The translations under genes and the position numbers were made by a program. Below the pieces are notes generated by a model. That model worked only from the letters and a program-made list of their open reading frames with translations, did not search any database and was not told where the DNA came from. This document shows, piece by piece, positions 6,227 to 26,025 of a stretch of DNA of 26,025 nucleotides. Each line of letters starts with the position of its first letter. Within the stretch, counting starts at the first letter, position 1. The stretch comes from a virus (lineage: Duplodnaviria; Caudoviricetes): IMG/VR virus record IMGVR_UViG_3300023214_000502, positions 1-26,025 of that record; one strand, 5' to 3'.

Positions 6227-6255
6227 ATTTCCTCAATATATGTTTGCTATAGAAA

Positions 6256-6396
6256 ATGCCTTATCAAATGCAAATTCCACGTGGACCTTCTGGTAGAGTT
6301 AAACGTGGGTTTAACAAAACTTTATGTCAAAAATATAATGTTGCATCTAGCACAATGAGTGCAATTTTAAATAGAAAATCATGGGGTGATTTATGA
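6256..6396 (+). pseudogene. probable homing-endonuclease remnant (C-terminal HTH only)
   Basis: 46 aa ending LCQKYNVASSTMSAILNRKSWGDL, resembling the terminal HTH of HNH/GIY-YIG endonucleases; ATGA overlap with thyX. Confidence 0.5.
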
Positions 6397-8525: not shown

Positions 8526-8754
8526 TGGAACTACGGTTTACGGAAGAGATTTTACAGTTGGCCATCATGCTATTTTTTTAGAGCAGCTTCGATATTCCGG
8601 TAAGGATGAATGTCCAATTTATGTAGACGAAGCAATGACAATTTCGCTAGATGCGGTTGATGTTTATTTTATAATTCACGAAGGTCAAAAGGAAGAAGAT
8701 TTGTATGTCGAAGAAGTATCAGAAGATACCAATGACCCACCTACACCTGCATAG
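8503..8754 (+). CDS. small hypothetical beta-rich acidic protein
   Basis: ATG 8503 after GAGGA gives 83 aa (MIAVKLLDGTTVYG...) and bridges the nuclease and dnaE by overlaps. Confidence 0.55.
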   Translation: MIAVKLLDGTTVYGRDFTVGHHAIFLEQLRYSGKDECPIYVDEAMTISLDAVDVYFIIHEGQKEEDLYVEEVSEDTNDPPTPA

Positions 8755-11700
8755 TACATATAGCGAGTTAGATGCAATTAGTAAAATTCCAGATATTGTC
8801 AAGAGGGCAAAAGAATATGGGCATTCTCATATTAGTCTGACAGACCATGGTACAGTGGCTGGGTGTCCTGAATTCTATAACGAATGCCACAAACAAGGTA
8901 TTAAACCCATCTTAGCTTGCGAATTCTATATGGTTCCAGACCCTGCTAAATCCAAGGAAGAAAAGTCTAGATTAAATCATCACCTAATTCTTCTTGCCAT
9001 GAATCAAGAGGGGTGGACAAATATCAAAAAACTAACCACTAGGGCAAATGAGCAGTTTTATTACGCTCCTCGTATTGGGTATGAGGACTTAAAGAATTAC
9101 TCAAATGGCCTAATTTGCTTAACGGCTTGTCTTAAGGGGGTTGTTCCTTGGCACATTGCCGCTGAGAAATATGAGGACGCAGAAAAACATCTTATTATCT
9201 TAAAGGGTATTTTTGGCGATAGGTTTTACCTTGAACTTCAAGATGGTGGGCTAGATGTGCAAATTAGAGTCAATGATGTTATGCGTCGTATGGCTCAAAA
9301 GCACGAACTGCCGGTCGTTGGATGTCAAGATGCGCACTATGTGGACCGTAACGACGTAGAGGCTCACGAGGGTATCTGGGCTATTCGAACGCGAAATACA
9401 TTCGATGACCCCGTTGGCTATGGTCCCCGCGACGACGTTGAGGGTCAGAGAACGCGACCATATTACTCCACCAAAGAATATTGGTTAAAAGATGCCCACC
9501 ATATGTTAAACGAAGACCTTACAACGGAAAATGGAGAAAAGCGTCGCAGCACACTCACACAAAAAGAGATTGAGGAAAGTGCGAAAATTGCAGAGCGAAT
9601 TGGCGATGTTGTTATTGAAAAGCGTATGCATCTTCCAAAATACGCATTTATTCCAGATATTTCACAAGTTGGTTGTGCCGTTGACGATTGTGGTGTTGAC
9701 GACATACCCTCTTCGCACTATCATCCAGGTGACATCAAGAGCGGCGAGACGGTCGACTTGGCGTCATTTAATTACCTTTGTGAGCTAATTGCGCGTGGCT
9801 ATGAGCGCGTATACGAACGAAGTTGGCTAAATCGCACAGAAGAGCACCGCAAGCGATTAGCAAAAGAACTAGGGGATATTAAAGATGCGAAATTGGCGGA
9901 CTATTTTCTCATCGTTTGGGATGTTGTGTCCTGGGCTAAATCTCAAGATATCCCCGTGGGACCTGGCCGTGGTTGTCTTACTTCTGACTCTTACGTGTCT
10001 ACTTTGGATGGGTATAAGTCCATAATGGACGTAAGACCAAATGTCGACAAGGTATTTAATAGCACTGGAGACATTGTTTCTGTAATTAATAAGTCGTCTT
10101 TCGATATCAATGAAGAAGTAGTATCGATTAAATCTTACTTTGATTTTTGGTCAACATGTAGGTTTACTAAGGACCACAAGGTTTTAATTAAAGTAGGCGA
10201 CGAGCAAACGGTGTATGGTAAATCTCTTCATCCCTCAAATAAGAAAAACACGTGGGTTGCAGCAGAAGATGTGCAAGTGGGCGACTTTGTTTGCATTCCT
10301 AAAGTCAAGAAGAATTTCCTACAAGAACAAACTATTTCCTTTTGGGATTTTGGTGTTCCTGAACATTGTAGTGAAGATGGAGACCAACTTATCGAAAAGA
10401 TGAGAGTTAATTCGCCTTATGATTTCTCAATTAGGGATGTGAATAAGGCAACTGGTATTGCAAGGTCAACTCTTCATAGAGTGATTGATGAGGGCGTTGA
10501 AAGGTGTCCTGACTCCACTGTTTCTACACTAACAAGCTACCTTATTGATAGCGGATTTGATAGCCTTGACCTTTGGATTTCTTATATTAGAAAGAATATG
10601 TGGAATTACTCAAGGATTTCGCGTAGACTACCAATAGATATGGATTTTGCGAAGTTTGCTGGTTTATGGATTGGAGATGGTTGTTTTAAGTCAGATACAG
10701 GACTTTCAATCTTTCTGGGCACTTCTGATGTCGATGCGATTAGTTTCCTTAAGACATATCTTTCAACTATAGGCGTGAGATTTTCTGTTAGGGACACTTC
10801 TAAGGAAATGGTCGCGGTTGATATTCATAGTAAGCTTTTTAATAGTATGTTTAAGCAAATCTTTGGGAATTGCACATCTCATACAAAGTTTATTCCAGAT
10901 AGCTTTATGCATAGCGAGAATCTACTTAAAGGTCTTCTTGTGGGGTTAATTTGGTCTGATGGTTCCCTGAGTGGTGGTAGGATTTCATTTGATACGACTA
11001 GTGAAGCGCTCATGAATAATATTAGGCTTCTTGGCTATCTACTTGACACTCCGTCGTCAGTCTCGAAGAGAGTATATGATGGAAATGAGGTAGATTCTTA
11101 TAAAATAAGATTCGCCAAAACTAGTGTTATCTGTGAGCTTTTTGGACTTAAGCAAACTAGGCAAAATTATTTCTTTGAGGATGATAAATATTTATACTGT
11201 GCAGTTAGAGAAAAGTCTATTGAAGAGTTTTCTGGTAAAGTCTATGACCTAGCAGTAAGTGGAGATAGTCCAAGTTTTCTTACTGGTGGCTATATTGTAC
11301 ACAATTCTGCTTCCGGCTCTATGGTTAGTTTTTGTTTGGGTATCACTGACGTGGACCCCCTCAAATACGGCCTCATCTGGGAGCGATTCTACAATGCAGG
11401 ACGCAAAGGGTCTCTCGCCGATATCGACATCGACATCGGAAAGAAGGATAGGGAGCGAGTAATCGCATATGTAAAGGAGCGTTTTGGCGAAGACAGAGTT
11501 GCTCCGATTATTACATTTAACACCCTTAAGTCAAAAGCCGCCCTTAAAGACACAGCTAAGCTTCTTGGTAAGCAGGGCGGCATGGCATTTGATGATGCAA
11601 ATGTTATGACTCGCTTTGTTCCCATGAAACACGGTCAGCCAGCTAAAATCGCTGATGCACTCGAAGAAAACGAGAAGCTTGCGGAGTACGCAGAGCGCTA

Positions 11701-11956
11701 TCCGCGCCTTTTTAACGTTGCTCAAAAACTTGAGGGGTGCCCAAAGAGCAGGGGGACTCACGCTGCCGGTATTCTGATTTCCGATAAGCCATTTTCGGAA
11801 GGTTTTCCGCTTAGGTGGAATACAAAAGAAAAGCACCTAATGACGGAATGGGATATGGAGACGATTGATTCGCTAGGGTATCTCAAATTAGACCTATTAA
11901 GCCTTAAAACATTAGACGTTCTAAGTGACATTGAGGATGAAGTAAATGAAACCTGA
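8705..11956 (+). CDS. dnaE: DNA polymerase III alpha, N-terminal part (PHP, palm, thumb), intein-containing
   Basis: HLHLHSTYSELD, TDHG, QDAHY, DYFLIVWD, GPGRG/SASGS, WERFYN, ADIDIDI, GTHAAG, LKLDLLSLKTL, then stop. Confidence 0.95.
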   Translation: MSKKYQKIPMTHLHLHSTYSELDAISKIPDIVKRAKEYGHSHISLTDHGTVAGCPEFYNECHKQGIKPILACEFYMVPDPAKSKEEKSRLNHHLILLAMNQEGWTNIKKLTTRANEQFYYAPRIGYEDLKNYSNGLICLTACLKGVVPWHIAAEKYEDAEKHLIILKGIFGDRFYLELQDGGLDVQIRVNDVMRRMAQKHELPVVGCQDAHYVDRNDVEAHEGIWAIRTRNTFDDPVGYGPRDDVEGQRTRPYYSTKEYWLKDAHHMLNEDLTTENGEKRRSTLTQKEIEESAKIAERIGDVVIEKRMHLPKYAFIPDISQVGCAVDDCGVDDIPSSHYHPGDIKSGETVDLASFNYLCELIARGYERVYERSWLNRTEEHRKRLAKELGDIKDAKLADYFLIVWDVVSWAKSQDIPVGPGRGCLTSDSYVSTLDGYKSIMDVRPNVDKVFNSTGDIVSVINKSSFDINEEVVSIKSYFDFWSTCRFTKDHKVLIKVGDEQTVYGKSLHPSNKKNTWVAAEDVQVGDFVCIPKVKKNFLQEQTISFWDFGVPEHCSEDGDQLIEKMRVNSPYDFSIRDVNKATGIARSTLHRVIDEGVERCPDSTVSTLTSYLIDSGFDSLDLWISYIRKNMWNYSRISRRLPIDMDFAKFAGLWIGDGCFKSDTGLSIFLGTSDVDAISFLKTYLSTIGVRFSVRDTSKEMVAVDIHSKLFNSMFKQIFGNCTSHTKFIPDSFMHSENLLKGLLVGLIWSDGSLSGGRISFDTTSEALMNNIRLLGYLLDTPSSVSKRVYDGNEVDSYKIRFAKTSVICELFGLKQTRQNYFFEDDKYLYCAVREKSIEEFSGKVYDLAVSGDSPSFLTGGYIVHNSASGSMVSFCLGITDVDPLKYGLIWERFYNAGRKGSLADIDIDIGKKDRERVIAYVKERFGEDRVAPIITFNTLKSKAALKDTAKLLGKQGGMAFDDANVMTRFVPMKHGQPAKIADALEENEKLAEYAERYPRLFNVAQKLEGCPKSRGTHAAGILISDKPFSEGFPLRWNTKEKHLMTEWDMETIDSLGYLKLDLLSLKTLDVLSDIEDEVNET
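9974..11305 (+). mobile_element. 444-aa intein with LAGLIDADG endonuclease in DnaE
   Basis: GPGRG|CLTSDSYV...FTKDHKV...AGLWIGDG...GLIWSDG...VYDLAV...IVHN|SASGS; excision restores GPGRGSASGS. Confidence 0.95.
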
Positions 11957-12377
11957 AGTTAAAATTGTGCTAACACATCAAGATGCGAAACTTCCGAGTT
12001 ATGCAAAGCTTGGAGATGCCGGTGCGGATGTTGTAGCAGTTGAATCCGCCACTATTTACCCTGGAACTACAGCAATGATTGATATCGGAATACGGATGGA
12101 GATACCTTCCGGTTGGGAAATGCAAGTTCGTTCGCGAAGTGGACTCGCCGCCAAGCGCAGTTTGTTTGTGCTTAATAGCCCAGGAACAATTGATGAAGGC
12201 TATAGGGGCGCAGTTAAGGTTTTGCTACACAACGCTGGTAAGTGTGTCCAAAGAATTGAAGCTGGTGAGCGAATTGCGCAATTGGTAATTAAGCGAGCAC
12301 CACAAGCTTTCTTTGTAGAAGTTGACGAACTGAGCGAGACAGAGCGCGGCTCGGGCGGCTTTGGAAGCACCGGATGA
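11946..12377 (+). CDS. dut: trimeric dUTPase
   Basis: AGADV, RSRSGLA, NSPGTIDEGYRG, RIAQLV, RGSGGFGSTG. Confidence 0.97.
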   Translation: MKPEVKIVLTHQDAKLPSYAKLGDAGADVVAVESATIYPGTTAMIDIGIRMEIPSGWEMQVRSRSGLAAKRSLFVLNSPGTIDEGYRGAVKVLLHNAGKCVQRIEAGERIAQLVIKRAPQAFFVEVDELSETERGSGGFGSTG

Positions 12378-13004: not shown

Positions 13005-13353
13005 ATATTTATGTGGTGAGTGCAAACATTCCCAAATGGAATCTTTGCCAATCTCATTTGACCCACAAAAAAAACTACATTGTCCAGAGTGTAAAGAGGA
13101 CGCAATGGAGCGCCGCATTATAGCTAGTGAGTTTCCACGCAAAGTAGGTAAAGTTTGGGCTGGTGATTGGTTTGAGAAGACCTATGGGCACGATGTCGGC
13201 GAAGACGCACAGCGTCGTGTTGATAAGAAAGAAGAGTTAGAGAAGGAGCGCAAAGAGCTTGAAGACCTAGGCGTTAGAATTAACTTTAAGTCGCGTCAAG
13301 TCGGAGATGAAAACAGAATTAGCATCAAGGGTAACAAAGGGGAGGACTCTTAG
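12991..13353 (+). CDS. FmdB-family zinc-ribbon protein
   Basis: MPIYKYLCGECKH...CPEC...MERRI; AGGAG RBS before TTG. Confidence 0.75.
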   Translation: MPIYKYLCGECKHSQMESLPISFDPQKKLHCPECKEDAMERRIIASEFPRKVGKVWAGDWFEKTYGHDVGEDAQRRVDKKEELEKERKELEDLGVRINFKSRQVGDENRISIKGNKGEDS

Positions 13354-13955
13354 TGCTTACTGTAATTACTGGTCCGATGTTTAGCGGCAAAACAACACGC
13401 TTACTATCGCTGGTGAGTTCATATCACCATGCTGGTCAAACTGCGTGCATTTATAAGCCATCGAATGATGATAGATATAGCGATGTGCACGTAAGGACTC
13501 ACGATGGTCAGGAAAGAATGGGATATGTGTGTGACAAAGACCATCCAGAATTTATATATAAATGGTCAAAAGATTTTGCGAACTTAATGCCGTCGGAAAA
13601 TTTTACGCCACCAACGATTTTTGGCATTGATGAAGCGCAGTTTTTTGAACTAGATGGGCTTATCGAAGTGGTTTGCAGAATGCTCTATCGTTGGCATGAT
13701 GATTTCCCCTCGCAGCCCAGATTAATCATTAGTGGGTTATCCCAGGATTCTAACGGCGAGCCATTTGGTGCTATGCCACACTTGTTGGCAATTGCTGATG
13801 AAATTATTCACCTAAAAGCCGTTTGTGCTGCTGCTAAAAAATTAAATAGCGCCACAAGAACATACCGAAAAGACAAAACAAATACTAATAAAGTGGCCGT
13901 CGGCGGCGCTGAAATGTATGAGCCCAGGAGTTTTGACGAGTGGTTGAAAAAGTAA
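13353..13955 (+). CDS. tdk: thymidine kinase
   Basis: GPMFSGKT, YKP..DDRY, IDEAQFF, GL..D..GEPFG, LKAVC, VGG.EMYEPR. Confidence 0.93.
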   Translation: MLTVITGPMFSGKTTRLLSLVSSYHHAGQTACIYKPSNDDRYSDVHVRTHDGQERMGYVCDKDHPEFIYKWSKDFANLMPSENFTPPTIFGIDEAQFFELDGLIEVVCRMLYRWHDDFPSQPRLIISGLSQDSNGEPFGAMPHLLAIADEIIHLKAVCAAAKKLNSATRTYRKDKTNTNKVAVGGAEMYEPRSFDEWLKK

Positions 13956-15634
13956 AGAGTGTCCCAAGAGACTATTTAGTAACACCAAAAGCTGAAGGAA
14001 CAGAGATTGTTGACCGCTTCAATGCTATTGAGGCAATTTCAAAGAAAAAGAAAAAGTTAGATTTTAACAAAATTCCACTTGACGACCAAAAAACATGGAA
14101 GCTAATTCAGAGCGGAATGACAAAGGGTGTATTTCAACTCGAAAAGCAGTTGGGCAAGAGGTATTGCAAGGAGATTGCGCCGAGAAATATTAATGAGCTA
14201 TCTGACGTATTGTCTTTAATTCGCCCTGGGTGTCTTGAGGCCGAATTTCGCGAGAAACCAGAGACGCCTGGTGAGTTTTCGTCAATTACACATACATATA
14301 TCAAAGTTAAGGATGGCACGTGGGAGCCGGAATACATTCACCCCGTTCTTGAGCCAATCTTTTCAGAGACATATTCAGTGCCGATTTATCAAGAGCAAAT
14401 CATGCGTATCTGTAGTGATTTTGCAGGATTTACGCTTCAGGAAGCTGATGTTGCTCGCAAGGCTGTTGGTAAAAAGAAGGCCGACGTTATGGCAAAGGTC
14501 AAGATTAATTTTCTTGATGGTGCTGAGAAAAACGGTCACACCAAAGAGCTTGCTGAGACTATTTTTAGTTGGATTGAAAAGTTCTCGGGCTATGGATTCA
14601 ACAAGTCTCACGGCGTAGCATATGCTTTAATTGCATATAAAACAGCTTATGCAAAAGCAAACTATCCAGCGGAATTTTTTCGTGCCATGCTTGCAAATTC
14701 AGATGGCAAGCAGGATAGTCTTGAAGAAATCGAGGAGCTTGTTCACGAGGCGCGCTACTTTAATATTGAGGTCTATCCCCCACGTCTTGATAGGATGAAT
14801 ATTGACTTTGAGATGGATGAGCGAAAGAATATCTACTTTGGGCTTTCGCACATCAAGGGCGTTGGCTCAAACGCTACTGGACAGCTACAAGTAATAAAGA
14901 CCTGTAAGACGCCAGGCGATTTTCTTGTCAAGTGCTTTTCTAAAAGCAAATACACGACATCAACTGGCAAGAAGCGTAATGGAATCACGATTAAGAGTAA
15001 TGTAGCGGAAGCATTGATTAAATCTGGGTGCTTGGATTATCTAGACTATCCAAGAGTTAAACTGTTGGCTCAATACAAATTGCTCAAGATTTTAACAGAG
15101 CGCGAGCGGAAATTCGTATTTGAGAAGCTCCCAGTTTTTGCTGAAGCCAAGAATCCTAATCCACTAAAATCTGCTTATCAAGCACTTCTAGATTCAAAAG
15201 TTCCAAACAAGTCGCGGCGCCCACGAATTATTGAGGCCGTTGATGAGCTTAATCGCTCCCTAGCAGGAAATCCAAAGAGAATGTGTATCGCATACGAGAA
15301 ACACCTCCTTGGTATTCCTCTATCTGGCAGCTTAGTCGAGCTTTATGACAACCCGAAGGTTAACATTAAGCTAAAGAATCTTCCAAAACTTCCAGAGGGA
15401 ACCAAGGGTGCGATTGGCGTAGTTATTGAAAAGGTCAAATTACATAAAGATAAAAATCACAATCAAATGGCATTTCTGACAGTATCTGACGATACATATT
15501 TTTGTGATGGGGTTGTTGTTTTTGCATCGTATTACAATAAAATAGCCTGGATAATTGAAGAGGGTCGCCCTGTTTTAATTACTGGTAAAAAAAATCGCGG
15601 CAGCTTTTTGGCGCGAGATATTTCTCATCTGTAG
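13940..15634 (+). CDS. dnaE: DNA polymerase III alpha, C-terminal part (fingers, HhH, OB fold)
   Basis: IPLDD.KTW, GVFQLE, LIRPG, YQEQIM, ARKAVGKKK, GYGFNKSH, KANYPAEF, FGLSHIKGVG, EKHLLG, MAFLTVSD; AGGAG RBS 9 nt before GTG. Confidence 0.93.
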   Translation: MVEKVKSVPRDYLVTPKAEGTEIVDRFNAIEAISKKKKKLDFNKIPLDDQKTWKLIQSGMTKGVFQLEKQLGKRYCKEIAPRNINELSDVLSLIRPGCLEAEFREKPETPGEFSSITHTYIKVKDGTWEPEYIHPVLEPIFSETYSVPIYQEQIMRICSDFAGFTLQEADVARKAVGKKKADVMAKVKINFLDGAEKNGHTKELAETIFSWIEKFSGYGFNKSHGVAYALIAYKTAYAKANYPAEFFRAMLANSDGKQDSLEEIEELVHEARYFNIEVYPPRLDRMNIDFEMDERKNIYFGLSHIKGVGSNATGQLQVIKTCKTPGDFLVKCFSKSKYTTSTGKKRNGITIKSNVAEALIKSGCLDYLDYPRVKLLAQYKLLKILTERERKFVFEKLPVFAEAKNPNPLKSAYQALLDSKVPNKSRRPRIIEAVDELNRSLAGNPKRMCIAYEKHLLGIPLSGSLVELYDNPKVNIKLKNLPKLPEGTKGAIGVVIEKVKLHKDKNHNQMAFLTVSDDTYFCDGVVVFASYYNKIAWIIEEGRPVLITGKKNRGSFLARDISHL

Positions 15635-15684: not shown

Positions 15685-16080
15685 ATGTTTAACGTAAATA
15701 CAGTTGTGCTTGGTGGCCGTTCTTGTAGTGACCCAGAAATTCGCGATACGCCGAATTCTCGCGTCGCCACTATTCGACTCGCAGTAAATGAGCGAGTCAA
15801 GAAGGGCGGCGAGTGGCAAGATGAGACTCTTTATGTTGATTGCGACGCTTGGGCCAAGAAGGTCGATTATGTCGAAAAACATGTGGGTCGCGGAACGCCG
15901 CTTCTAGTTGAGGGTAAACTCAGGATGGATACCTGGGAGAAGGATGGCAAGAATCACCAGAAGCTTAAGCTTTATGTGACAAATCTTCAGGTTGATTTCC
16001 TAGAGAAGAGTAGGGATGGTCAAAGGGCCGCCAATAAGCCAGCGGCAGCTCCAACTGGTGGAGACAATCTGCCATTCTAA
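15685..16080 (+). CDS. ssb: single-stranded DNA-binding protein
   Basis: NTVVLGG...DPEIR...LAVN...DCDAW...GTPLLVEGKL, C-terminal DNLPF. Confidence 0.95.
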   Translation: MFNVNTVVLGGRSCSDPEIRDTPNSRVATIRLAVNERVKKGGEWQDETLYVDCDAWAKKVDYVEKHVGRGTPLLVEGKLRMDTWEKDGKNHQKLKLYVTNLQVDFLEKSRDGQRAANKPAAAPTGGDNLPF

Positions 16081-18953
16081 TGAAGCGTAGAATTTTATTT
16101 TGTGGCGAGGCATCTTTCCTGAGCACGGGTTTTGCAACCTTCAATCGGGAGGTGCTTCGTCGCCTACATACTACTGGAAGATACGAATTGGCCGAAATGG
16201 CGTCGTTTGTTTCGCAAAATGACCCACGAGCTAAGAATATTCCGTGGGGGTTCTACGGTGTGTCGCCAAGTAATCAGCAGGAAAAACAAGCTTTTGACGC
16301 CTTGCCTGAAAACGAAAAGGCGGTTTATCAGTTTGGTAAGCACAAAATCAATGCAGTTCTGGCCGATTTTCAGCCAGACGTAGTTTTTGATTGCGTGCCA
16401 CCTGGAGAACTCGTATACACTCGACATGGGTATAGGCCAATCGAAGATATAGCTGCTGGCGATTTAGTTATGACTCATAAGGGTAGGTTTAGACCAGTAA
16501 AATCTGCATGGTCCCGAAGCCATAATGGTCAACTTGTTAAAATCTCCGTAAATGGAAACAGAGACACATTGAGGGTTACGCCGAATCATCCCGTTTTGGT
16601 TTTTCAAAAGCGCAACCAAACAAATAGAAAAAAATCTTATAAGAAAATTTATAAAGATGTAAAACCAGAGTTTGTTAAGGCAAAGGATTTAAAGAAAGGG
16701 GACCTGGTCGTTCTTCCAAAGTTTAATGGGGAAAGAAAAAAAAACACAATAGACATTACAGACTATGTAGAAAATTATACTTTAGTTGGTGAAGATAAGC
16801 TACGCCCACAATCGCATGGCAATCTAATTAATAGATATATTGATGTGGACGAGAAGTTTGCTCGCCTTATTGGGTATATTTTGGGTGATGGCTATATTAA
16901 TTATCCTGGTATCCAAATTACTTTTGGAGAAAATGAATCTAATTTAATAGACGATGCGCAAGTGCTCATTGAAGATATTTTTGGACTACGGGCTAATGTT
17001 AGACCATATGTAGATAAAGCTGCTAAAGACATATATGCGCATTCTGTAGTAATTAGAGAATTCTTGGATAATTATTTGAAAGATTTACACGTTCCAGAGC
17101 ATTTCTATGTCGCTGAAGATTCTATTATTTCCAACTTAATAAGTGGAATGGTTCGTTCTGATGGGTGCTACAAAAAAAGAACTGTCTCTTTTGCCAATAC
17201 AGCCCCTCATCTTATCTATGAATATAGAGCGTTGTGCACTACGATTGGTGTGCCAACAAATATAACATATTCTTTGAGAGAAAAGGAAACGCATAAAACA
17301 GCATACGAGGTGTCTACATACGGCAGTGCGTGTGAAGATTTACATAGAATTGTAGATAAATCTAATTATGATTTTAAGAATGCAACGAATCCAGTTTGCA
17401 GTTCAAGGCGAACGCAAATAGTAAATGGATTTTTAACATCATCAATAACTAGTATTGAAATTAAGCCATATGATGGTTTGGTTTACAATTTTGAAGTAGA
17501 AGAGGATAATAGCTATTGTGTAAAGTCTTGGACTACTCATAACTGTAGAGACCCATGGATGCTCGCGCACCTTACGAATTCTCGCTATAGGAACTACTAT
17601 AAGCTTGTGTTAACCCCGACTGTTGACTCTGCGCCGTCAAAGCGCGAGTGGATTGATAAAATCTATAGAAATGCTGATGTTCTTACAGCTTATAGTCGCT
17701 TTGGGAAAAAAGTTCTTGAAAAAGATGGGCTTGATGTCGGTGCTGTTACGTCTCCAGGTTGCGACTTGAGTGTTTTTAAGCCGCTTGATAAAGACGAAAT
17801 AAGAGATAAGTTTCATCTTAATAAATCCCTAATGGTTTTTGGCACAGTGATGCGCAATCAGCGCCGCAAGCTTTTCCCAGATTTATTTGAGGCTTATGCG
17901 AGGATGCGTAACAAATATGCGCCGCGCAGTAAAATTGAGCGAATCAAAAAGAGATTGAACAGTGGTAAGTCTCTAACGAAATCAGAAAAAGATGCGTTAA
18001 AGATTCACCATAGTGTCTTGTTGTGTCATACAAGTTGGCCAGATAACGCTGGCTGGGACCTTCCAGATTATATCTTTAATCGTTTCAATATCCAGAGACA
18101 CGTTCTTTTCACCTATAAGTGTAACAATTGTCAGGACGTATATGTAAGTTGGTTTATACCAACAGACCAGCGTGGATATTGTGTTTGTCGTAGCTGTGGC
18201 GAGAAGGCCGCGCACATGCCATCAACGCATGATGGTATTGATGAAGACAAGCTTGTAGAGATATTCAACTTAATAGATGTGTATATCCAGCCGGCAATTT
18301 GTGAGGGCTGGGGTCTACCAATTATGGAAGCCAAGGCGTGCGGGGTTCCCGGTTTATATCAGAATTATTCAGCCATGGAGGACCACGTAGAAAATGGCGG
18401 CGGTTTGCCAATTAAGATAGAAAGGTTTTATCACGAAGCAGAAACTGCTGCTCGTCGTTCGCTTCCAGACCTTGATGATATGGTGAATAAGATGCGTAAA
18501 CTGGCGCTTAATGACAAGCTTCGCGCATCCCTTGGTAGAGAGGCCAGAGAGACGTGTGAGCGTATGCACACTTGGGAAATTACGGCGAAGCAATATGAGA
18601 ATATTTTTGATTCAGTAGAGCTTCATGACAGAACTCAAACGTGGGATGCTCCACCTAGAATTGAGATTATGAGTAATGAGCGTCCGCCAGCAAATATCGA
18701 TAATAGAAATTTTGTGATTTGGCTATATGTTAATATTCTTAGACGTCAACCAGATGAAAAGGGGTTTAACGACTGGATGGTCTCTCTTTTAAATGGAACC
18801 TCTAGGGCTGAAGTTGAGAATTTTTTCCGTCAACAAATCCTTTTAGAGAATAAGTTTGAAGAAACTCGCTGGATAAAATCATTGAAGCGACGCGGCATAC
18901 AGCCACCACAAAGGACAATAGTTAACACTGGTGCGCCAGGAGTCCTCATATGA
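16080..18953 (+). CDS. GT4 (GT-B) glycosyltransferase with intein, Cys4 insert and DUF4214-like C-terminal domain
   Basis: RILFCGEASFLSTGF, RNQRRK, DVYIQPAICEGWGLPIMEAKACGVP (E-x7-E); 573 aa after splicing. Confidence 0.88.
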   Translation: MKRRILFCGEASFLSTGFATFNREVLRRLHTTGRYELAEMASFVSQNDPRAKNIPWGFYGVSPSNQQEKQAFDALPENEKAVYQFGKHKINAVLADFQPDVVFDCVPPGELVYTRHGYRPIEDIAAGDLVMTHKGRFRPVKSAWSRSHNGQLVKISVNGNRDTLRVTPNHPVLVFQKRNQTNRKKSYKKIYKDVKPEFVKAKDLKKGDLVVLPKFNGERKKNTIDITDYVENYTLVGEDKLRPQSHGNLINRYIDVDEKFARLIGYILGDGYINYPGIQITFGENESNLIDDAQVLIEDIFGLRANVRPYVDKAAKDIYAHSVVIREFLDNYLKDLHVPEHFYVAEDSIISNLISGMVRSDGCYKKRTVSFANTAPHLIYEYRALCTTIGVPTNITYSLREKETHKTAYEVSTYGSACEDLHRIVDKSNYDFKNATNPVCSSRRTQIVNGFLTSSITSIEIKPYDGLVYNFEVEEDNSYCVKSWTTHNCRDPWMLAHLTNSRYRNYYKLVLTPTVDSAPSKREWIDKIYRNADVLTAYSRFGKKVLEKDGLDVGAVTSPGCDLSVFKPLDKDEIRDKFHLNKSLMVFGTVMRNQRRKLFPDLFEAYARMRNKYAPRSKIERIKKRLNSGKSLTKSEKDALKIHHSVLLCHTSWPDNAGWDLPDYIFNRFNIQRHVLFTYKCNNCQDVYVSWFIPTDQRGYCVCRSCGEKAAHMPSTHDGIDEDKLVEIFNLIDVYIQPAICEGWGLPIMEAKACGVPGLYQNYSAMEDHVENGGGLPIKIERFYHEAETAARRSLPDLDDMVNKMRKLALNDKLRASLGREARETCERMHTWEITAKQYENIFDSVELHDRTQTWDAPPRIEIMSNERPPANIDNRNFVIWLYVNILRRQPDEKGFNDWMVSLLNGTSRAEVENFFRQQILLENKFEETRWIKSLKRRGIQPPQRTIVNTGAPGVLI
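16392..17543 (+). mobile_element. 384-aa intein with LAGLIDADG endonuclease in the GT4
   Basis: DVVFD|CVPPGELV...VTPNHPV...IGYILGDG...GMVRSDG...VYNFEVEEDNSY...THN|CRDPWM. Confidence 0.93.
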
Positions 18954-20107
18954 GGCCGCTTGGGTCAAGCGTGAAGATTCTATATGTGGCTCCGCTCAGA
19001 GATTTTAGCGGATATGCTAGTGCGTCCCGCGATTACGTTAGGGCTTTAGATTCAATTGGGGCTCATGTCACAACTAGAGATTTAATCTATGACGGTGGAA
19101 ATTATGAGCGAGATAGGCGCGAATCTGAGTTGGCTAATAGGGCGATTGACAATGTAGAGATACTCATACAGCAAACAACACCAAATGAAATGGAACCGAT
19201 GCCTGGCGTTTTTAATGTTGGCGCATTCTGCTGGGAAACAGACACGATTCCTCAGTTGTGGGTGCAGCAGCTTAATAAAATGCAACTTGTGATTGTTCCT
19301 ACTAAGGAAAACGCAGAGGTTGCTCGGCGTTGCGGAGTTATTACTCCAGTGGAACAAATTCCATATGCTTGCGATGTCAAAAAATATAAGAATAAAGTAG
19401 ACTCATATCGCTTTTCGCAAATAGACAATAGGTTTAAGTTTTTGGCTATTTGTCAGTATAGCAAGAAAAAGGGTCTAGACCCGCTACTAAAGGCTTACCT
19501 AAGTGAATTCAATCAAGATGAAAATGTTGCGCTAATTCTGAAAACATATTTTAGCCCAAATGATGGTGAAGCTGAGCGCGATAAGATGATGGAGATTGTA
19601 AACATTATCAAACACGCAATGCGTCTTAAGAGCTACCCCCCAATTCAATTAATTCATGGAGTGTCGAGTTTCGAAGAAATCGAAAGACTCTACGAAACCG
19701 CAGATTGCTACGTCCTTCCATCAAGAGGCGAAGGGTGGGGCGTGCCGCATTTTGATGCACTTGGCTATGGCCTCCCAGCGATAGCTACACAGGGAACTGG
19801 GCCGCTAGAGTTTATTACACCAGAGTGTGGTTGGCTTGTGGATTCTCACATGAGTCCAGTTGTAGATATGCCGCATCCACATGATTTCCTCTATACAGCG
19901 AAGGAGAAGTGGCACGAGCCACATGTGTGCGATATTCAACGGTGCATGAGGGATGCTTTCAACACCTACACTCATAGACAAGAAGAATGGGAGAATAAGT
20001 GTGTTGCGGCAAAAACGCGTGTGTTAGATTTCTCACATGAAAAAGTTGGGGCTACACTAATAGCCGCCATAGATAAATACTACAGGATGTGGAAAGATGT
20101 TTCTTAA
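18950..20107 (+). CDS. GT4 glycosyltransferase
   Basis: FSGYASASR, FCWETD, KKGLDPLLKAY..EF, DCYVLPSRGEGWGVPHFDALGYGLP. Confidence 0.88.
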   Translation: MRPLGSSVKILYVAPLRDFSGYASASRDYVRALDSIGAHVTTRDLIYDGGNYERDRRESELANRAIDNVEILIQQTTPNEMEPMPGVFNVGAFCWETDTIPQLWVQQLNKMQLVIVPTKENAEVARRCGVITPVEQIPYACDVKKYKNKVDSYRFSQIDNRFKFLAICQYSKKKGLDPLLKAYLSEFNQDENVALILKTYFSPNDGEAERDKMMEIVNIIKHAMRLKSYPPIQLIHGVSSFEEIERLYETADCYVLPSRGEGWGVPHFDALGYGLPAIATQGTGPLEFITPECGWLVDSHMSPVVDMPHPHDFLYTAKEKWHEPHVCDIQRCMRDAFNTYTHRQEEWENKCVAAKTRVLDFSHEKVGATLIAAIDKYYRMWKDVS

Positions 20108-21179
20108 TTTAGTCGCACCAATCAATCAACTTGGATATGGAAATGTCGGCTTTAATGTTCTAAAGACTCTTGCTGACGAGGGCCACATGGTTGCATATTT
20201 TCCAATTGGTCAACCGCAATGGGAGGCTCCTGTAGATTTTGCTCAGCGAGCCCTTGAGGCCGCAAAAACATTTCCACCAGATGCGCCATCAATTAGAATT
20301 TGGCACCAAAACGATATGGCTATGATGCCAGGTAGGGGTAAGCGCATCGGCTGGCCTATCTTTGAGCTAAATAGATTCGATATGCAAGAAGAGCATCATT
20401 TACGCTCTTGCGACGAATTGTTTGTTTGTTCAGAATGGGCTAAGGAAATTCTTAAAGCTGAGGGTTTCGACATGCCAATTCATGTTGTACCCCTTGGCGT
20501 GGACTCAAGCGTCTTTCACGTAGATGAGGAGGCTGCTGCTCAGCGCTCGTATTGGACGCGCGATAAGACGGTCTTTTTAAATATCGGGAAATGGGAAGTG
20601 CGCAAGGGACACAACGAATTACTAGAGGCATTCTGTAAAGCATTTAAGCCAAATGACCCCGTTGAACTCTGGATGATTAACCAGAATGATTTTATTGGGT
20701 TGCAAAACGAGCAGTGGAAGCTTAAGTACATTTCGTCCCCAATGGGGCAAAATATCAAGATTCGCCCAAGGGTAAATACTCAGGCTGAGTTAAAACAAAT
20801 CTATAACCAGGTCGATTTGGGCGTCTTCCCAGCCCATGCAGAAGGATGGAACTTGGAGGTTCTAGAATTGATGGCTTGCGGTAAACCGTCAATTGTTACT
20901 AACTACTCTGGGCATACTGAATTCTGCAATGAAAAAAATTCTTTCCTAGTAGAACCGAATGGAATGGAGAGCGCTCAGGATGGTATCTGGTTTAAGGGTC
21001 AAGGCGAGTGGTGTACATTCGATGTTGACGAGCTTGCTAAAGCCATGGTTGAAGCACATACTGCGCGTCAACAAATAGATGAAACCGAAGTGTATGCTTT
21101 GAAGTCACAGGCTGCTCTTAATACCGCCGGCAAGTTCTCTTGGAAAAATACTGTAGAAAAGATTGAGTGTGTTTTATGA
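20097..21179 (+). CDS. GT4 glycosyltransferase
   Basis: APINQLGYG, VVPLGVD, IGKWEVRKG, GVFPAHAEGWNLEVLELMACGKP. Confidence 0.88.
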   Translation: MFLNLVAPINQLGYGNVGFNVLKTLADEGHMVAYFPIGQPQWEAPVDFAQRALEAAKTFPPDAPSIRIWHQNDMAMMPGRGKRIGWPIFELNRFDMQEEHHLRSCDELFVCSEWAKEILKAEGFDMPIHVVPLGVDSSVFHVDEEAAAQRSYWTRDKTVFLNIGKWEVRKGHNELLEAFCKAFKPNDPVELWMINQNDFIGLQNEQWKLKYISSPMGQNIKIRPRVNTQAELKQIYNQVDLGVFPAHAEGWNLEVLELMACGKPSIVTNYSGHTEFCNEKNSFLVEPNGMESAQDGIWFKGQGEWCTFDVDELAKAMVEAHTARQQIDETEVYALKSQAALNTAGKFSWKNTVEKIECVL

Positions 21180-21337
21180 TAGCTAAAATTACATATATGG
21201 ATAAAACAGTAGAGGAAGTTGAGTTTGAAAATAGTAGAGTTTATGATGGTATTATTGCACTTACAACAGAAAAACTTTCAACAAATATCCCACTTCATAA
21301 TATTTTTAAGGTTGAGGTGGAGCTAGACAGTGAATAA
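21176..21337 (+). CDS. 53-aa hypothetical beta-rich protein
   Basis: Not in the track. MIAKITYMDKTVEEVEFENSRVYDGIIALTTEKLSTNIPLHNIFKVEVELDSE; overlaps both flanking genes. Confidence 0.6.
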   Translation: MIAKITYMDKTVEEVEFENSRVYDGIIALTTEKLSTNIPLHNIFKVEVELDSE

Positions 21338-23732
21338 GCAAATAGTTGGGGTTTTAGATGAATTCCAATTTACTAATAGGCCAATTAAGTTGGTTAAGTG
21401 CTTAGCCGCCCACAACGAAGAGGAGTGGATTGAATATAATCTAAGGAATTGCTATGACGAATTTGACATCATTAGGGTTGTGGAGGGAGCCGTCGAAGGA
21501 AGACCTGGAAGCACTCCTGATGGGCATTCCACTGATAAAACCCGCGAGATTATTCGTGAATTTCCTGACCCAGATGGAAAGGTTGAATTCTATCAAATTG
21601 AGCGCCCATTCAAATCTCTTGAAGAACAAAAACAGGTATTTCTTGACGTCGCCAGCGAAGGCGAGTGGCTGTTCATCGTAGACTGTCTGACTGGCGACAG
21701 GTGCGTTCCTGTTCAAATAGATGGTAAGACACGGGTTATTACTCTTGAGGAGCTTTTTGAATTCTATAAAGACAGTAAATCTTACTGGCAATATAGGTCT
21801 ATTGGTGGACAAGAAGTTCTGTCTGTGTCTAACTTAAAAACTCTCTCCGTCTGCCGCGTCAATTATCCAGAACATAAACTTGAAAAAGAAAACCGAGGGA
21901 AGATTAAGCTTTCTGGCTACTTTAGGTCGAAGTTAACGAAGAGGCAACTAGCTGTATTGGACCTTTATGAGTCTGATGAACTAAAGTTAAATCAAGAATA
22001 TAATTCTGTTATTCGTAGTCTTCGCAAAAAACTTAGCGAGGTGCGTGAAGTAGTGCTTGAATGGAAGAAGGTTTCTAGGCTTACGAGGAGACTTACAGAC
22101 AAGGAAATCGTTCTAACCCGCAGTAAGCATGGCGAGACAAGGACGACTGGAGACCATAAGTTGGCCTGTAAAGTTGACGGTCAGGAGGTTTTGTATACGA
22201 AGGCAAAGTTTTTTAATAAGACCTCTAGTCAAGACTTGCTTCAGGCATCGAGCGTGACTCAAGATGTTATAGGGGAAATAAAACTGTCCGATTGGATTGA
22301 TATTAATAAACTAGGGATGTTTATTGGTAATGACGACCCACATAGTAATGACCTTCGATTGCATTACAACTCTCCAAGAAAAGACCAACGAAAGTTTTGT
22401 TTCCAAGACCTATATTTTGGTCCAGATATCGAAGACTTGTGTTGGTTACTTGGGCATTATGCTGCCGAAGGGTCTGTAGATAAGACAATGGCAAACTTTA
22501 GAGTTTGTGGTAGTAAACACGACGTGGATAGGTGTGAGAAAATCCTTAAAGGGTTTGGGGACTTTAGGTCACATCGAGGCGTGACAGAAAAGCACACAGG
22601 AACCGAAGTTCACTACTTGGCGATTACATCATCGGTTGTTATTCAAATTTTTGCAGAGCTTTTTGGTCTTGGCGCACGCAATAAGCAAATTCCGAGTTTT
22701 GTTTTTCATCTAGATAAGCATTCTAAGGAAGCTTTTCTTGATGGATACAATACTGGCGACGGACACGCCATTGAGCTTAGTAATTCTACCAAACAAATTG
22801 CGACGACCATATCACCTAAGCTACTAGGGGGCATATGCCTACTTAACAAATATCTTGGGAAAGACCTATCCCTAACCTACAGGGAACCCGACCAATTTTA
22901 TGATAACCACAGTAGAAATGGAACGACATACTCTTGTTATCAAGATGTAACAAGAAGAAGAAACTCCAAGAGTGTGGTTCAAGTAAATCAAGGCAAAACC
23001 AAGGAGTGGGTGTACGACCTTATTGTTCCAGAGACTCACAATTTCTGTGATGCTGCGGGTATGATTGTTGTGCATAACTGCGACGAGTTCTACATGGAGG
23101 GCTCAATAGAGCGTCTTAGGCGCTGTATTCGTGCTCGTCCAAATGCATCTGAATTTATTCCAACTTTTCTTCATTTCTATAGGGACTTCTACCACATCAA
23201 AGCTGTACACCCAGAATGGAACTGTTGGCATCAAAGGGTAATTCGTTATCAAGATGGGCTGAGATATCATACTCACCCTGTTGCAACTGATGCAAACGGT
23301 AAGTGTACGTATTTTGATGGAGGATATCAAACAAAGAGATATTTTATTCCAGAATTGTATGTTTGGCATTACGGCCACGCAAAGGGTAAAGAATTCCATA
23401 CTATGAAGCAGGAGTTCTACAAGAGTGAACTCGAAAAGTTTAAACTTTCAGATGGAAGTAGCGCTTTTCAAAAGTTTGATGAGAAGTTTCTTGAGTTCGT
23501 AAATAATTCTGAGGACCTTAGCACTATCCTAAGCTATCCAGATGACCATCCAGAAGCTATTAAGTCACATCCTAGTTTTTCTCATAGGGAAAATTCATAT
23601 AAAGGTGTTGATTTTAAGTATTGGCGCGAAGCCCCGTTTTACAACGAACGAGAACTGCCAACTATTCCACTGTTAATGCAAGGACCGTGGCGACAAGCCA
23701 TGTTGTTCTACAATGTACTGGATGTAGCATAA
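21330..23732 (+). CDS. GT2-like (GT-A) glycosyltransferase with intein
   Basis: AHNEEEWI, IRVVEG...STDKT, WLFIVD/CDEF (DxD restored on splicing), WHYGH; 335 aa after splicing. Confidence 0.85.
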   Translation: MNKQIVGVLDEFQFTNRPIKLVKCLAAHNEEEWIEYNLRNCYDEFDIIRVVEGAVEGRPGSTPDGHSTDKTREIIREFPDPDGKVEFYQIERPFKSLEEQKQVFLDVASEGEWLFIVDCLTGDRCVPVQIDGKTRVITLEELFEFYKDSKSYWQYRSIGGQEVLSVSNLKTLSVCRVNYPEHKLEKENRGKIKLSGYFRSKLTKRQLAVLDLYESDELKLNQEYNSVIRSLRKKLSEVREVVLEWKKVSRLTRRLTDKEIVLTRSKHGETRTTGDHKLACKVDGQEVLYTKAKFFNKTSSQDLLQASSVTQDVIGEIKLSDWIDINKLGMFIGNDDPHSNDLRLHYNSPRKDQRKFCFQDLYFGPDIEDLCWLLGHYAAEGSVDKTMANFRVCGSKHDVDRCEKILKGFGDFRSHRGVTEKHTGTEVHYLAITSSVVIQIFAELFGLGARNKQIPSFVFHLDKHSKEAFLDGYNTGDGHAIELSNSTKQIATTISPKLLGGICLLNKYLGKDLSLTYREPDQFYDNHSRNGTTYSCYQDVTRRRNSKSVVQVNQGKTKEWVYDLIVPETHNFCDAAGMIVVHNCDEFYMEGSIERLRRCIRARPNASEFIPTFLHFYRDFYHIKAVHPEWNCWHQRVIRYQDGLRYHTHPVATDANGKCTYFDGGYQTKRYFIPELYVWHYGHAKGKEFHTMKQEFYKSELEKFKLSDGSSAFQKFDEKFLEFVNNSEDLSTILSYPDDHPEAIKSHPSFSHRENSYKGVDFKYWREAPFYNERELPTIPLLMQGPWRQAMLFYNVLDVA
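21684..23078 (+). mobile_element. 465-aa intein with LAGLIDADG endonuclease inside the DxD motif
   Basis: FIVD|CLTGDRCV...TTGDHKL...LGHYAAEG...FLDGYNTGDG...VYDLIVPETHNF...VVHN|CDEF. Confidence 0.93.
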
Positions 23733-25174
23733 TGGAAATTAATGAAATTACCACGCCCCTGTCTCGTAAGTTTTTAAAGTTTTTAGCCAAGCTAGACCAA
23801 GGCAAGCTGTCTTCTAAGCAAAAAAGGCTAGCTAAACTGCGTGCCCGAGTTCTTGATGCAGCCAGGTGCGGCAAGAAACCCACCTATAAGGTGGACGAAA
23901 CGCCAGAATGGCGCAGGGAAATTCCTGAGTGGATGCAAGACCAGCGCAACCAAATGACTGGTCCAGCAAACGATGCGAAGCTAGTTGTTCGTATGGTTAA
24001 TTCTCACTCACCTGGAGTAATGCTTGACCTAGAAGATTCGTGTGCTAATACTCCCGGCGCCATTATGGAGGGCCACTGGACAATTAAGGAAGCGCATCGC
24101 GGAACACTCAAGTGGGGCGTTGAGGAGATTGATGCTAGTTCTCCAAGTGTTATTTGGACTCGTGTGCGCGGTTTACACATGGGGCAAAACATTATGGGAC
24201 CGAATAACAAAAGGCAGTATACTAGTGCGAGCCTATTTGATATCGCTATGCATTTTTATGACATGGAGCTTGAGGATTTTAAACACGACCCATGTATTTA
24301 TATTCCGAAGAGCGAGAACTCTCAGGAGGCAAGGTGGTGGCGCGATGCATTTGGCGCTGTTGAGCGAGCTAAGGGGTGGAAGCGCGGTACGATTAAGGCA
24401 ATGGCGCTCGTGGAATCGTATCCACTAGCTTTTGAGCTAGAAACCTTCATTTACGAACTTCAACCCTACCTGGTCGGCTTGAATCTTGGTCGTTGGGACT
24501 ACATGGCGTCGTTTATTGATTATCATTATGGGGACTTTATTTTCCCAGACAGAAATGAGATTCCAACAGATGTATCGTTTTTTCAGAATTTACGTAAACT
24601 TATTGTAGATGTGTGCAATAGACATGGTCTTTTTGCGATAGGTGGTATGACAGCGCTATATCCCAATTCTTCTTATTCTGAAGAGAAGAACGCTACTATA
24701 CTAAAGCAAACCGCTTCAGATAAGAAAAACGAAGCCAAATGTGGATTTTCTGGTGCATGGACAGGCCACCCATCTGTCAACGATATAGCTATTGAGCAGT
24801 TTCCAAAACCAAACCAAATAGGTGCTATTCCTCCTCTGGAGCAGCGAAACTTGGATATCTCGACATATAGTGATTTATTGGAATTACCGACAACACTACG
24901 TGGCACTAAAGATGCAATAAAGACGTGTATTATTTATCGTTTTGGTGTGTTAAGCGGGAAAGGTGCGTCTTTTATTGATGGATACATGGAGGATTTAGCG
25001 ACTGATAGAATATATCGAATTATAATTTCGCAAAGATTAGACCTTGGCATCCACGATACGAACGAGGTGCTGAAAATTTTTGCTGATATAGGAAGGGAGT
25101 TGGGGCAAAAATACGATAATGCATTAGAGGAAACATGGCGACTTATTGAAAAACGACAGTTTAATCCAAAATGA
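23732..25174 (+). CDS. aceB: malate synthase
   Basis: QMTGP, MLDLEDS, TRVRGLH, SLFD, IYIPKSE..EARWW, GTIKA..LVES, GLNLGRWDY, IGGM, DK.NEA..GFSGAWTGHP, YMEDLAT. ATG 23732 overlaps the GT stop (TAATG), giving 480 aa; the track start at 23621 is unlikely. Confidence 0.92.
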   Translation: MEINEITTPLSRKFLKFLAKLDQGKLSSKQKRLAKLRARVLDAARCGKKPTYKVDETPEWRREIPEWMQDQRNQMTGPANDAKLVVRMVNSHSPGVMLDLEDSCANTPGAIMEGHWTIKEAHRGTLKWGVEEIDASSPSVIWTRVRGLHMGQNIMGPNNKRQYTSASLFDIAMHFYDMELEDFKHDPCIYIPKSENSQEARWWRDAFGAVERAKGWKRGTIKAMALVESYPLAFELETFIYELQPYLVGLNLGRWDYMASFIDYHYGDFIFPDRNEIPTDVSFFQNLRKLIVDVCNRHGLFAIGGMTALYPNSSYSEEKNATILKQTASDKKNEAKCGFSGAWTGHPSVNDIAIEQFPKPNQIGAIPPLEQRNLDISTYSDLLELPTTLRGTKDAIKTCIIYRFGVLSGKGASFIDGYMEDLATDRIYRIIISQRLDLGIHDTNEVLKIFADIGRELGQKYDNALEETWRLIEKRQFNPK

Positions 25175-25884
25175 ATAAGCCGAGAATTAAAGAATGTGGT
25201 ATCTATAAGATAGAATGTATCCCAACTGGAAAAATATATATTGGAAGTTCAGATTTTATCTATAGAAGATTTGGCGCTCATAGGCGAGTTTTAAATAAAA
25301 ATAAGCACGACAACGAATATTTGCAGCGCGCTTGGAATAAGCATGGTTCTATAAATTTTATATTTTCAGTTGTTGAAATTTGTAGCGAAGTTGACCTTCT
25401 TAGTAGAGAACTGTATTTTATGCAAAAATATAAATCGTTTTTACGAAAATTTGGATTTAATTTAGTAAACAATCCAATTAGAAAGACTCACTCAGAAGAG
25501 ACAAAACTTAAGCTTTCAAAGAAACGAATTGGGTGCTTAAATCCATTTTACGGTAAAGAACACAGCAAAGAAGCTAAAGAAAAAATTTCCAGGTTTTCTT
25601 GCGGTAAAAATAATCCGTTTTACGGTAGAAAACACACGAGTGAGTCTAAGGAAAAAATTAGCAAATCGTCCAAGAGTAGAACACACCCACTAAGTTCTCG
25701 TGAAAAAGTAAGTCGAAATAATCCAAGAAGAAAATTCACAGATAGCCAAATAACAAAGATAAGACATCTTTGTAAGCAGGGTAATTTTACCCAAGCCACA
25801 ATAGCTAATCTTTATAATACAGATAGCGGAACTATTTCTAGGATTAAAAATAAGAAAATCTATATATTCGTAGAGGATAAATGA
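25171..25884 (+). CDS. free-standing GIY-YIG homing endonuclease with NUMOD3 repeats and terminal HTH
   Basis: GIYKI...KIYIGSS, RRF..H, LQRAWNKHG, RE, FNL; HSEETKLKLS-type repeats; AT-rich. Confidence 0.92.
   Translation: MNKPRIKECGIYKIECIPTGKIYIGSSDFIYRRFGAHRRVLNKNKHDNEYLQRAWNKHGSINFIFSVVEICSEVDLLSRELYFMQKYKSFLRKFGFNLVNNPIRKTHSEETKLKLSKKRIGCLNPFYGKEHSKEAKEKISRFSCGKNNPFYGRKHTSESKEKISKSSKSRTHPLSSREKVSRNNPRRKFTDSQITKIRHLCKQGNFTQATIANLYNTDSGTISRIKNKKIYIFVEDK
25540..25662 (+). repeat. two NUMOD3-type repeat units with 72-nt period
   Basis: NPFYGKEHSKEAKEKIS at 25540 and NPFYGRKHTSESKEKIS at 25612; both start AATCCnTTTTACGGTA. Confidence 0.8.
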
Positions 25885-26025
25885 GAAACTACAACGAACT
25901 AAACGAAGCATTTCATGGTGAGCGATTTCAAGGCGTTGCGCGCGAGTGGACGCCAGACGATGTATTGAAGTTAAGAGGTCCGCATTTCATCGAACACACA
26001 ATAGCTCGCCAAATGTCAAGTCGAC
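25881..26025 (+). CDS. aceA: isocitrate lyase, N-terminus (runs off the window)
   Basis: Not in the track. MRNYNELNEAFHGERFQGVAREWTPDDVLKLRGPHFIEHTIARQMSSR matches the AceA N-terminal pattern RW.GI.R.Y..EDV.KLRGS..IEHTLAR; GAGGA RBS; adjacent to aceB. Confidence 0.8.
   Translation, partial: MRNYNELNEAFHGERFQGVAREWTPDDVLKLRGPHFIEHTIARQMSSR

Follow-up and report, generated by a model that had tools for sequence, protein, structure and literature searches.

Genes for a very probable glyoxylate shunt form an optional cassette in the glycan cluster of a large uncultured tailed phage

Introduction

[quoted passage not shown] The stretch of DNA analyzed here, hereafter the window, comprises 26,025 nucleotides (nt) (positions 1-26,025 of IMGVR_UViG_3300023214_000502), is a fragment of a large uncultured bacterial tailed phage, and ends in a malate synthase gene (aceB) and the beginning of an isocitrate lyase gene (aceA). 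This raises the questions of whether the two genes belong to the phage, whether they could act together as a shunt, and what the phage would gain from them. An earlier note, made from the letters alone, had proposed a phage-encoded glyoxylate shunt. Here, we find that the pair (aceBA) lies in a variable slot of a glycosyltransferase cluster in a large tailed phage and that its enzymes likely run the shunt in the infected cell, a reading to which we assign a probability of roughly 0.68.

Results

The window encodes an intact malate synthase and the start of an isocitrate lyase

The right end of the window holds three genes:

23732..25174, + strand: aceB, intact malate synthase of 480 aa, divergent subfamily resembling malate synthase A (MSA) (PF01274, TIGR01344, PDB 3cuz and 3cux)
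25171..25884, + strand: free-standing GIY-YIG/NUMOD3 endonuclease gene between aceB and aceA (PF01541, TIGR01453, PHROGs)
25881..26025 (frame to 26024), + strand: aceA, isocitrate lyase gene truncated by the contig end after its first 48 codons (NF011645, PDB match, profile)

We place the start of aceB at ATG 23732, where relatives start; the open reading frame (ORF) program chose TTG 23621 within the upstream gene. The product matches PF01274 (E 3e-46; 157.9 bits against a cut-off of 26.4), and both of its PDB sequence matches are malate synthases, i.e., E. coli MSA (3cuz, E 2e-57) and 3cux. The full malate synthase with RVRG and MED motifs described in the earlier note was borne out, as R144 (RVRG), E228, D256, and D421 (MED) do not vary across the alignment of malate synthases (317 of 317). 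R144, E228, and D256 align with identical residues of E. coli MSA, and D421 with its Asp447, located in the C-terminal cap (residue numbers in the PDB comparison are chain position plus 1). We take E228 and D256 to be the Mg ligands and R144, the first Arg of RVRG, to be equivalent to Arg338 of malate synthase G (MSG). Asp447 is reported as the catalytic base of E. coli MSA (PMC3112382), and a catalytic Arg role is described for MSG Arg338 (PMC3832036).

The window protein is alignable with 3cuz and 3cux over most of its length, with the catalytic Asp and Arg retained, and it keeps 82 of the 86 columns that are conserved in at least 95% of the 317 rows. An AlphaFold2 model built from a 26-row alignment (mean predicted local distance difference test score, pLDDT, 90.8; predicted template modeling score 0.90) shows helices at the N terminus, then strands alternating with helices, and a C-terminal part that is helical. 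Judged by sequence alignment and model secondary structure, this resembles 3cuz and 3cux, with helices on the N-terminal side of the barrel and a C-terminal cap made of helices. Unlike enterobacterial MSA, to which it is about 31-32% identical, the protein is about 50 residues shorter and falls below the cut-off of the MSA equivalog model TIGR01344, for which reason it is filed as MSA-like rather than MSA; Ala412 stands at the position of E. coli MSA Cys438, where 3cux also has Ala.

The 48-residue ORF at 25881, taken in the earlier note for the N terminus of an isocitrate lyase, indeed matches NF011645 (E 3.6e-6) and TIGR01346 (E 0.0043), and its best PDB match is an isocitrate lyase (E 3.4e-5). 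Against a profile of 181 distinct isocitrate lyases from the fetched loci, it scored 19.3 bits, compared to 4.2 bits for the best of 2000 shuffles. Pfam and PHROGs gave no match for this fragment, and a search for longer proteins returned 13 candidates with 0 at E <= 10, a weak negative given the short query. The rightward extension proposed in the earlier note yielded nothing further, since no contig of the public runs X1-X3 extends beyond 26025.

A collinear phage carries both genes whole

The tailed-phage record G001 (167,041 bases, rated 91% complete) is collinear with the window, with 19 of the 28 window ORFs matched in the same order at 28-71% identity; among the 9 unmatched ORFs are the GIY-YIG gene and the short piece of isocitrate lyase. 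A partial scan of G001, which took in ORFs of at least 180 aa only (81 ORFs), gave terminase, portal, RIIA, RIIB, and ribonucleotide reductase matches and no integrase. At the corresponding locus, a malate synthase gene for 480 aa (49% identity to the window protein) comes directly after a GT2-like gene; 3 bases on, there is a whole isocitrate lyase of 418 aa with the KKCGH motif (PF00463, 266.6 bits). More glycosyltransferases, epimerases, a WecB-type epimerase, and a UDP-sugar dehydrogenase lie 3' of aceA. Thus, aceB and aceA are adjacent in G001 and one gene apart in the window. Because G001 has a whole KKCGH isocitrate lyase right after the orthologous malate synthase, the window pair very probably forms a glyoxylate shunt, as the earlier note had supposed.

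The sequence GATC is missing from the entire window (0 versus 72 expected), as the earlier note had pointed out, including the segment 23732-26025 (0 versus 5.5), and it is likewise missing from G001 (0 versus 442). The junctions at 23732 and 25881 are each spanned by contigs of both X1 and X2, and that at 25171 by an X1 contig, with no joints listed for any of them; run X3 contains a small share of the window only and was left out of this evidence. The codon-usage score of aceB (0.063) lies within the range of 13 scored reference phage genes (0.028-0.128). The collinearity with G001, the spanned junctions, and the common lack of GATC place aceBA inside viral sequence and not in a host flank, in keeping with the earlier argument against a host-chromosome junction, and we regard it as nearly certain that the cassette is phage borne.

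The pair is an optional cassette in its phage family

Scanning with a two-row GT4 alignment found 16 family loci, one of which is G001 and another of which (L277) ends before the aceBA slot. In 14 of the 14 others, no malate synthase or isocitrate lyase was matched within the locus. The flanking genes of the slot abut in L264, L266, and L267. Other genes occupy the slot in L265, L268, L270, and L271, which makes it a general site of gene turnover; the contents at L268:13276-15892, L270:13262-15818, and L271:13892-15721 include weak vWA-domain matches and a PD-(D/E)XK nuclease.

In a six-marker-segment tree, which took in 14 of 17 sequences, the window groups with G001 and L277 (100/100), and presence of aceBA requires 1 change. 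A sister relation of the window and G001 was not rejected, yet not demonstrated, by the approximately unbiased test (p 0.46). G001 (167 kb, 91%) and the relatives G006 (177 kb) and G013 (176 kb) fall below the 200-kb huge-phage limit, the window itself being a 26-kb fragment. Altogether, the aceBA pair is an optional cassette in this family.

Inner family members (the window, G001, L264-L270, and L277) have no GATC at all, a trait not shared by the outer ones (L271-L276, L278, and L279); L271 has normal GATC despite a weak grouping with the GATC-free L268 and L270. The trait probably serves to evade a host nuclease that cuts at GATC.

The malate synthase belongs to a branch apart from the commoner viral type

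Viral contigs scanned with a malate synthase alignment gave 3 loci (L001, L002, and L003, the last lying in G001), and a scan with a single malate synthase protein gave no relative. We rejected L001 as a phage example, as it has 65% GC content, bears the gene at the record end, and groups with cellular proteins. None of the 3 matches among 50,697 GenBank phage records (two genome contigs of Salmonella and an unannotated record of 1.7 kb, 31-32% identity) was accepted as a phage aceB. The locus L002:9797-12594 lies in G002, an unrelated complete jumbo phage of 370,804 bases, and has a malate synthase of this divergent type next to a whole isocitrate lyase; neighboring genes resemble, by eye, KdsA, NeuA, and a sugar aminotransferase; its malate synthase falls outside the window's group, and the pair is perhaps a further capture.

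A scan for isocitrate lyase gave 178 viral loci, of which the best 80 were examined, one being G001. A malate synthase lies near the isocitrate lyase in 35 of the 79 others, so that the search for viral aceA-aceB pairs urged in the earlier note was fruitful; these 35 proteins are 29-34% identical to that of the window, and in a 36-row IQ-TREE a 100/100 branch separates the window's subfamily from the canonical-type viral malate synthases. Given this identity and this branch, the window cassette is most likely, on sequence grounds, a capture separate from the commoner viral aceBA type. The other 44 of these 79 loci (L173-L251), some of them cut short, have no malate synthase match in the fetched DNA, which agrees with published findings that lone isocitrate lyases are in excess among phages.

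The closest proteins to the window malate synthase, P0002-P0026, are 47-59% identical and almost all nameless. The cellular comparison covered 25 of the 64 parts into which the genome collection is divided, with the best 80 of 584 matches kept, and 14 of 64 metagenome parts, with the best 80 of 590 kept. Within the genome set, the best named relatives (45-53% identical) come from Acidobacteriota, Eremiobacterota/Vulcanimicrobiota, Eisenbacteria, and Chloroflexota, mostly from the first three. In 66 of the 80 cellular genome loci of the divergent subfamily, an isocitrate lyase motif lies nearby. A 317-row FastTree places none of the 160 cellular and metagenome loci in the 30-row group (Shimodaira-Hasegawa support 94) that holds the window and G001 proteins; thus, the tree suggested in the earlier note sets the window and G001 malate synthases apart from the sampled cellular ones. 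The matching group has support of 83/97 in the 36-row IQ-TREE, the bootstrap of which had not fully settled, and the window's nearest five rows have 99/99. The GARP/FYMINK ratio is 0.88 for P0002-P0026, 0.84 for the window, and 1.67 for cellular proteins, and one of the 25, P0020, lies on a contig of 168,636 bases, which matches the genome size of the window's phage family. The grouping, the low-GC-type amino-acid make-up, and this contig suggest that P0002-P0026 may be viral. P0121, of the P0003 cluster, is among the proteins grouping nearest to that of the window; its label assigns it to a Bathyarchaeota bin, on a 7.5-kb contig, and it may be a phage fragment that was mis-binned.

Gene between aceB and aceA, overlaps, and neighboring genes

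As the earlier note had described, the genes are chained by a TAATG overlap at 23732 and ATGA overlaps at 25171 and 25881, and aceB and aceA are separated by the GIY-YIG gene alone. The latter has PF01541 plus 3 NUMOD3 matches, scores 119 bits with TIGR01453 against a cut-off of 56, and has a GC content of 0.32 versus 0.44 for aceB; no such gene lies between aceB and aceA in G001. Its homologues lie between several glycosyltransferase genes in L267, which fits an endonuclease mobile within the glycan cluster. We consider it a likely homing endonuclease that was inserted later. An intron reading was rejected, because Rfam gave no match anywhere in the window and there is no spacer DNA; the gene overlaps both neighbors, leaving no room for flanking intron sequence. 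Promoter-like and terminator-like sites were at chance level in our scan (18 versus 22.5 and 7 versus 7.9, respectively).

Upstream of aceB lie the following genes:

21330..23732, + strand: GT2-like gene carrying an intein; forms the left border of the variable aceBA slot (intein matches; G001 orthologue)
16080..21179, + strand: three glycosyltransferase genes of GT4 type, with an intein in the first; beginning of the family glycan cluster (Pfam, PHROGs)

The earlier note had counted four glycosyltransferases here. Three have Pfam glycosyltransferase matches and are 50-59% identical to their orthologues in G001, where the gene order is unchanged. Pfam gave no glycosyltransferase match for the fourth (21330-23732), which is 62-65% identical to an intein-free orthologue directly 5' of the G001 malate synthase; that orthologue gave a GT2 family match below cut-off only (E 8.7e-4). 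Orthologues of the fourth gene occupy the equivalent position in the family loci.

The remainder of the window is a phage replication block with DnaB, primase, ThyX, exonuclease, DnaE (two genes), dUTPase, thymidine kinase, single-stranded DNA-binding protein, and glycosyltransferases (Pfam, PHROGs). Nucleotide-pool genes are dense at 3308-7328, 11946-12377, and 13353-13955, encoding an NT5C 5'-nucleotidase, a dATP/dGTP diphosphohydrolase domain, Nudix, ThyX, dUTPase, and thymidine kinase, and an RF-1-domain protein is encoded at 5121-5522. Enzymes of the dATP/dGTP diphosphohydrolase type often accompany modified-base systems; the window gene with this domain has no match in G001. DnaE (DNA polymerase III alpha) is split into 8705-11956 and 13940-15634, with the dUTPase gene, a gene without assigned function, a zinc-ribbon gene, and the thymidine kinase gene in between, and the split recurs in G001 and the family loci. 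Inteins with LAGLIDADG matches are present in the glycosyltransferase-type genes 16080-18953 and 21330-23732 and in the first DnaE half; the G001 orthologues of all three lack inteins, and the second DnaE half of G001 has an intein-like insertion (coordinates listed: L003:1909-4305).

Discussion

How might the cassette serve the phage? The cassette would have been acquired once, in the subgroup of the window and G001, and the GIY-YIG gene would have come later in the window's lineage with neither gene broken. Lying on the same strand with overlapping stops and starts, aceBA would be co-read with the replication and glycan genes. Additional C4 acids could supply aspartate-derived nucleotides and, through host phosphoenolpyruvate (PEP) carboxykinase or malic enzyme, sugar phosphates, with the benefit expected to arise in a host living on acetate or fatty acids. 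We take the host of the phage HP1 virocell to be Pseudoalteromonas type. During HP1 infection, host aceA and aceB are reported to be approximately 3-fold over-expressed (PMC7082346), which makes a benefit plausible, though a phage-encoded pair is not what the HP1 data tested.

Several observations weigh against a phage-borne working shunt, and we set them out here together with the rival explanations. That aceB and aceA are host chromosome, attached to phage sequence where a prophage ends or through mis-assembly, would fit genes at a contig end, and such flanks do exist in viral collections, as L001 with its 65% GC illustrates. Runs X1 and X2 come from the same study, and X1 is possibly the source sample, so they are not independent support; in addition, the coverage check proposed in the earlier note, for all that contigs span 23732, found X1 depth falling from 10.9 to about 3.7 across aceB, which mars an otherwise clean picture. 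Two short X1 contigs (58 and 92 bases, depth 3.7) match aceB over 30 bases at 23929-23958 and 24708-24737 and then diverge; these loose ends could stem from chimeric molecules, from a subpopulation of variants, or from matches of a spacer-like kind. A host origin is nonetheless largely refuted by G001, where the same arrangement has phage glycan genes on both sides, and it is scarcely credible given the absence of GATC, the contigs across the junctions, and a protein group in which no sampled cellular or metagenome locus falls. It is quite unlikely that the cassette is decaying, with the malate synthase under relaxed selection and the isocitrate lyase broken past the contig end or uncoupled by the endonuclease insertion. 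The window's isocitrate lyase is known from 48 residues only, and its likeness to G001 aceA is weak (local score 41, 19 aligned residues); the malate synthase has a long terminal branch (0.87, with 1.39 for G001 and a median of 0.34 in the 36-row IQ-TREE) and departs from 4 of the 86 highly conserved columns (T117, N296, I323, and S340). Its frame, however, is full length, the other conserved columns and the catalytic positions are kept, the structural model is confident, and the endonuclease insertion leaves both neighbors in frame with ATGA overlaps. A malate synthase-like protein acting on another substrate or step, e.g., malyl-CoA hydrolysis or glyoxylate disposal rather than the canonical shunt, would agree with the failed equivalog cut-off (TIGR01344, 243.8 bits, E 2.6e-72, against 594.5), with the promiscuity reported for related TIM-barrel enzymes (PMC3832036), and with our finding no assayed subfamily member, no literature search having been aimed at the divergent subfamily. 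This is very unlikely, as the subfamily adjoins isocitrate lyase in G001, in G002, and in most of the cellular genome loci, and malate synthases are its sole PDB sequence matches. Altogether, we consider it very likely that the window malate synthase is enzymatically active and likely that the window's isocitrate lyase is whole.

The purpose of an active pair is a further matter. The enzymes might serve host upkeep, helping the cell, together with the surface-glycan genes, to survive carbon starvation or stress in a stalled or lysogenic stage, as Nishimura et al. (2017) suggested in the case of a genome carrying aceBA and lipopolysaccharide (LPS) genes (PMC5332604); one family record (G009) is classed as a provirus, and aceBA is dispensable in complete relatives. 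Indeed, neither gene was found in any of 12 whole family records, including the complete G006 and G013; the remaining 10 are 14-62% complete, L272, L273, and L275, near-copies of L274, were left out, and G001 and G002, used as positive controls, were both detected. Host upkeep is unlikely in view of the overlap-packed genes ending a same-strand replication block, where promoter- and terminator-like sites do not exceed chance, and of the lack of integrase in the partial G001 scan. The absence of the pair from relatives also tells against a tight tie to glycan synthesis: the glycan cluster is kept without aceBA, G006 and G013 included, so the cluster does not need aceBA, and the link between aceBA and nucleoside diphosphate sugars is positional only. 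Moreover, neither PEP carboxykinase (two families) nor AceK was matched in 4 records, including G001, so that the route to sugars and the split of isocitrate flux would fall to host enzymes. With these points in the balance, we retain the reading that the two enzymes run the shunt in the infected cell, and we hold it somewhat better than even that the benefit is carbon supply for phage production.

Phage aceBA pairs are already published, contrary to the novelty implied in the earlier note; among them are one on a genome that also has glycan genes and others with a single gene between aceB and aceA. The complete marine viral genome TARA_ERS478052_N000008, of 179 kb, was described by Nishimura et al. 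(2017) as having an aceBA operon, and it also encodes six LPS and capsule enzymes (PMC5332604). Like the window's phage family, that genome has aceB followed by aceA, a similar size, and genes for glycosyltransferases and nucleotide-sugar enzymes; unlike the window, it has T4-like structural genes and an aceBA pair without an endonuclease in between. Its AceB (502 aa; TIGR01344 E 2.7e-215, versus 2.6e-72 in the window) appears, from the supplementary table, to be of the canonical MSA type. The Huge Phage Genome Collection preprint lists aceBA in 22 huge phages, 2 of them with one gene in between (bioRxiv 10.1101/2025.02.27.640493); that collection covers genomes of at least 200 kb, whereas the complete and near-complete members of the window's family measure 167-177 kb, and G002 (371 kb), with the divergent malate synthase type, would be big enough for it. 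Hurwitz et al. (2013) reported aceAB in Pacific Ocean viromes and proposed them as viral auxiliary metabolic genes (PMC4053976), a virome-level detection, compared to the genome context available here. What is particular here is the divergent malate synthase type and the optional cassette among sugar-modifying genes. One might go further and propose a second independent phage capture, in which a 170-180 kb family took a divergent aceBA from a lineage near Acidobacteriota/Eremiobacterota/Eisenbacteria as a swappable cassette feeding acetyl-CoA carbon to a glycan island; we offer this tentatively, at slightly below even odds.

If that proposal is true, the approximately 25 nearest proteins, P0002-P0026, would make up a malate synthase branch largely confined to phages, and sister phages, some having the cassette and some lacking it, would form a natural experiment on its worth. 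The case adds a well-supported aceBA example outside the 200-kb class, with a distinct malate synthase type, and a phage family in which the cassette, at a single fixed site, is present in some close relatives and missing from others. More generally, a phage-encoded shunt could set whether an infected cell loses acetyl-CoA carbon as CO2 or retains it as biomass, an idea already in print, where, in the text available, it draws on sequence alone.

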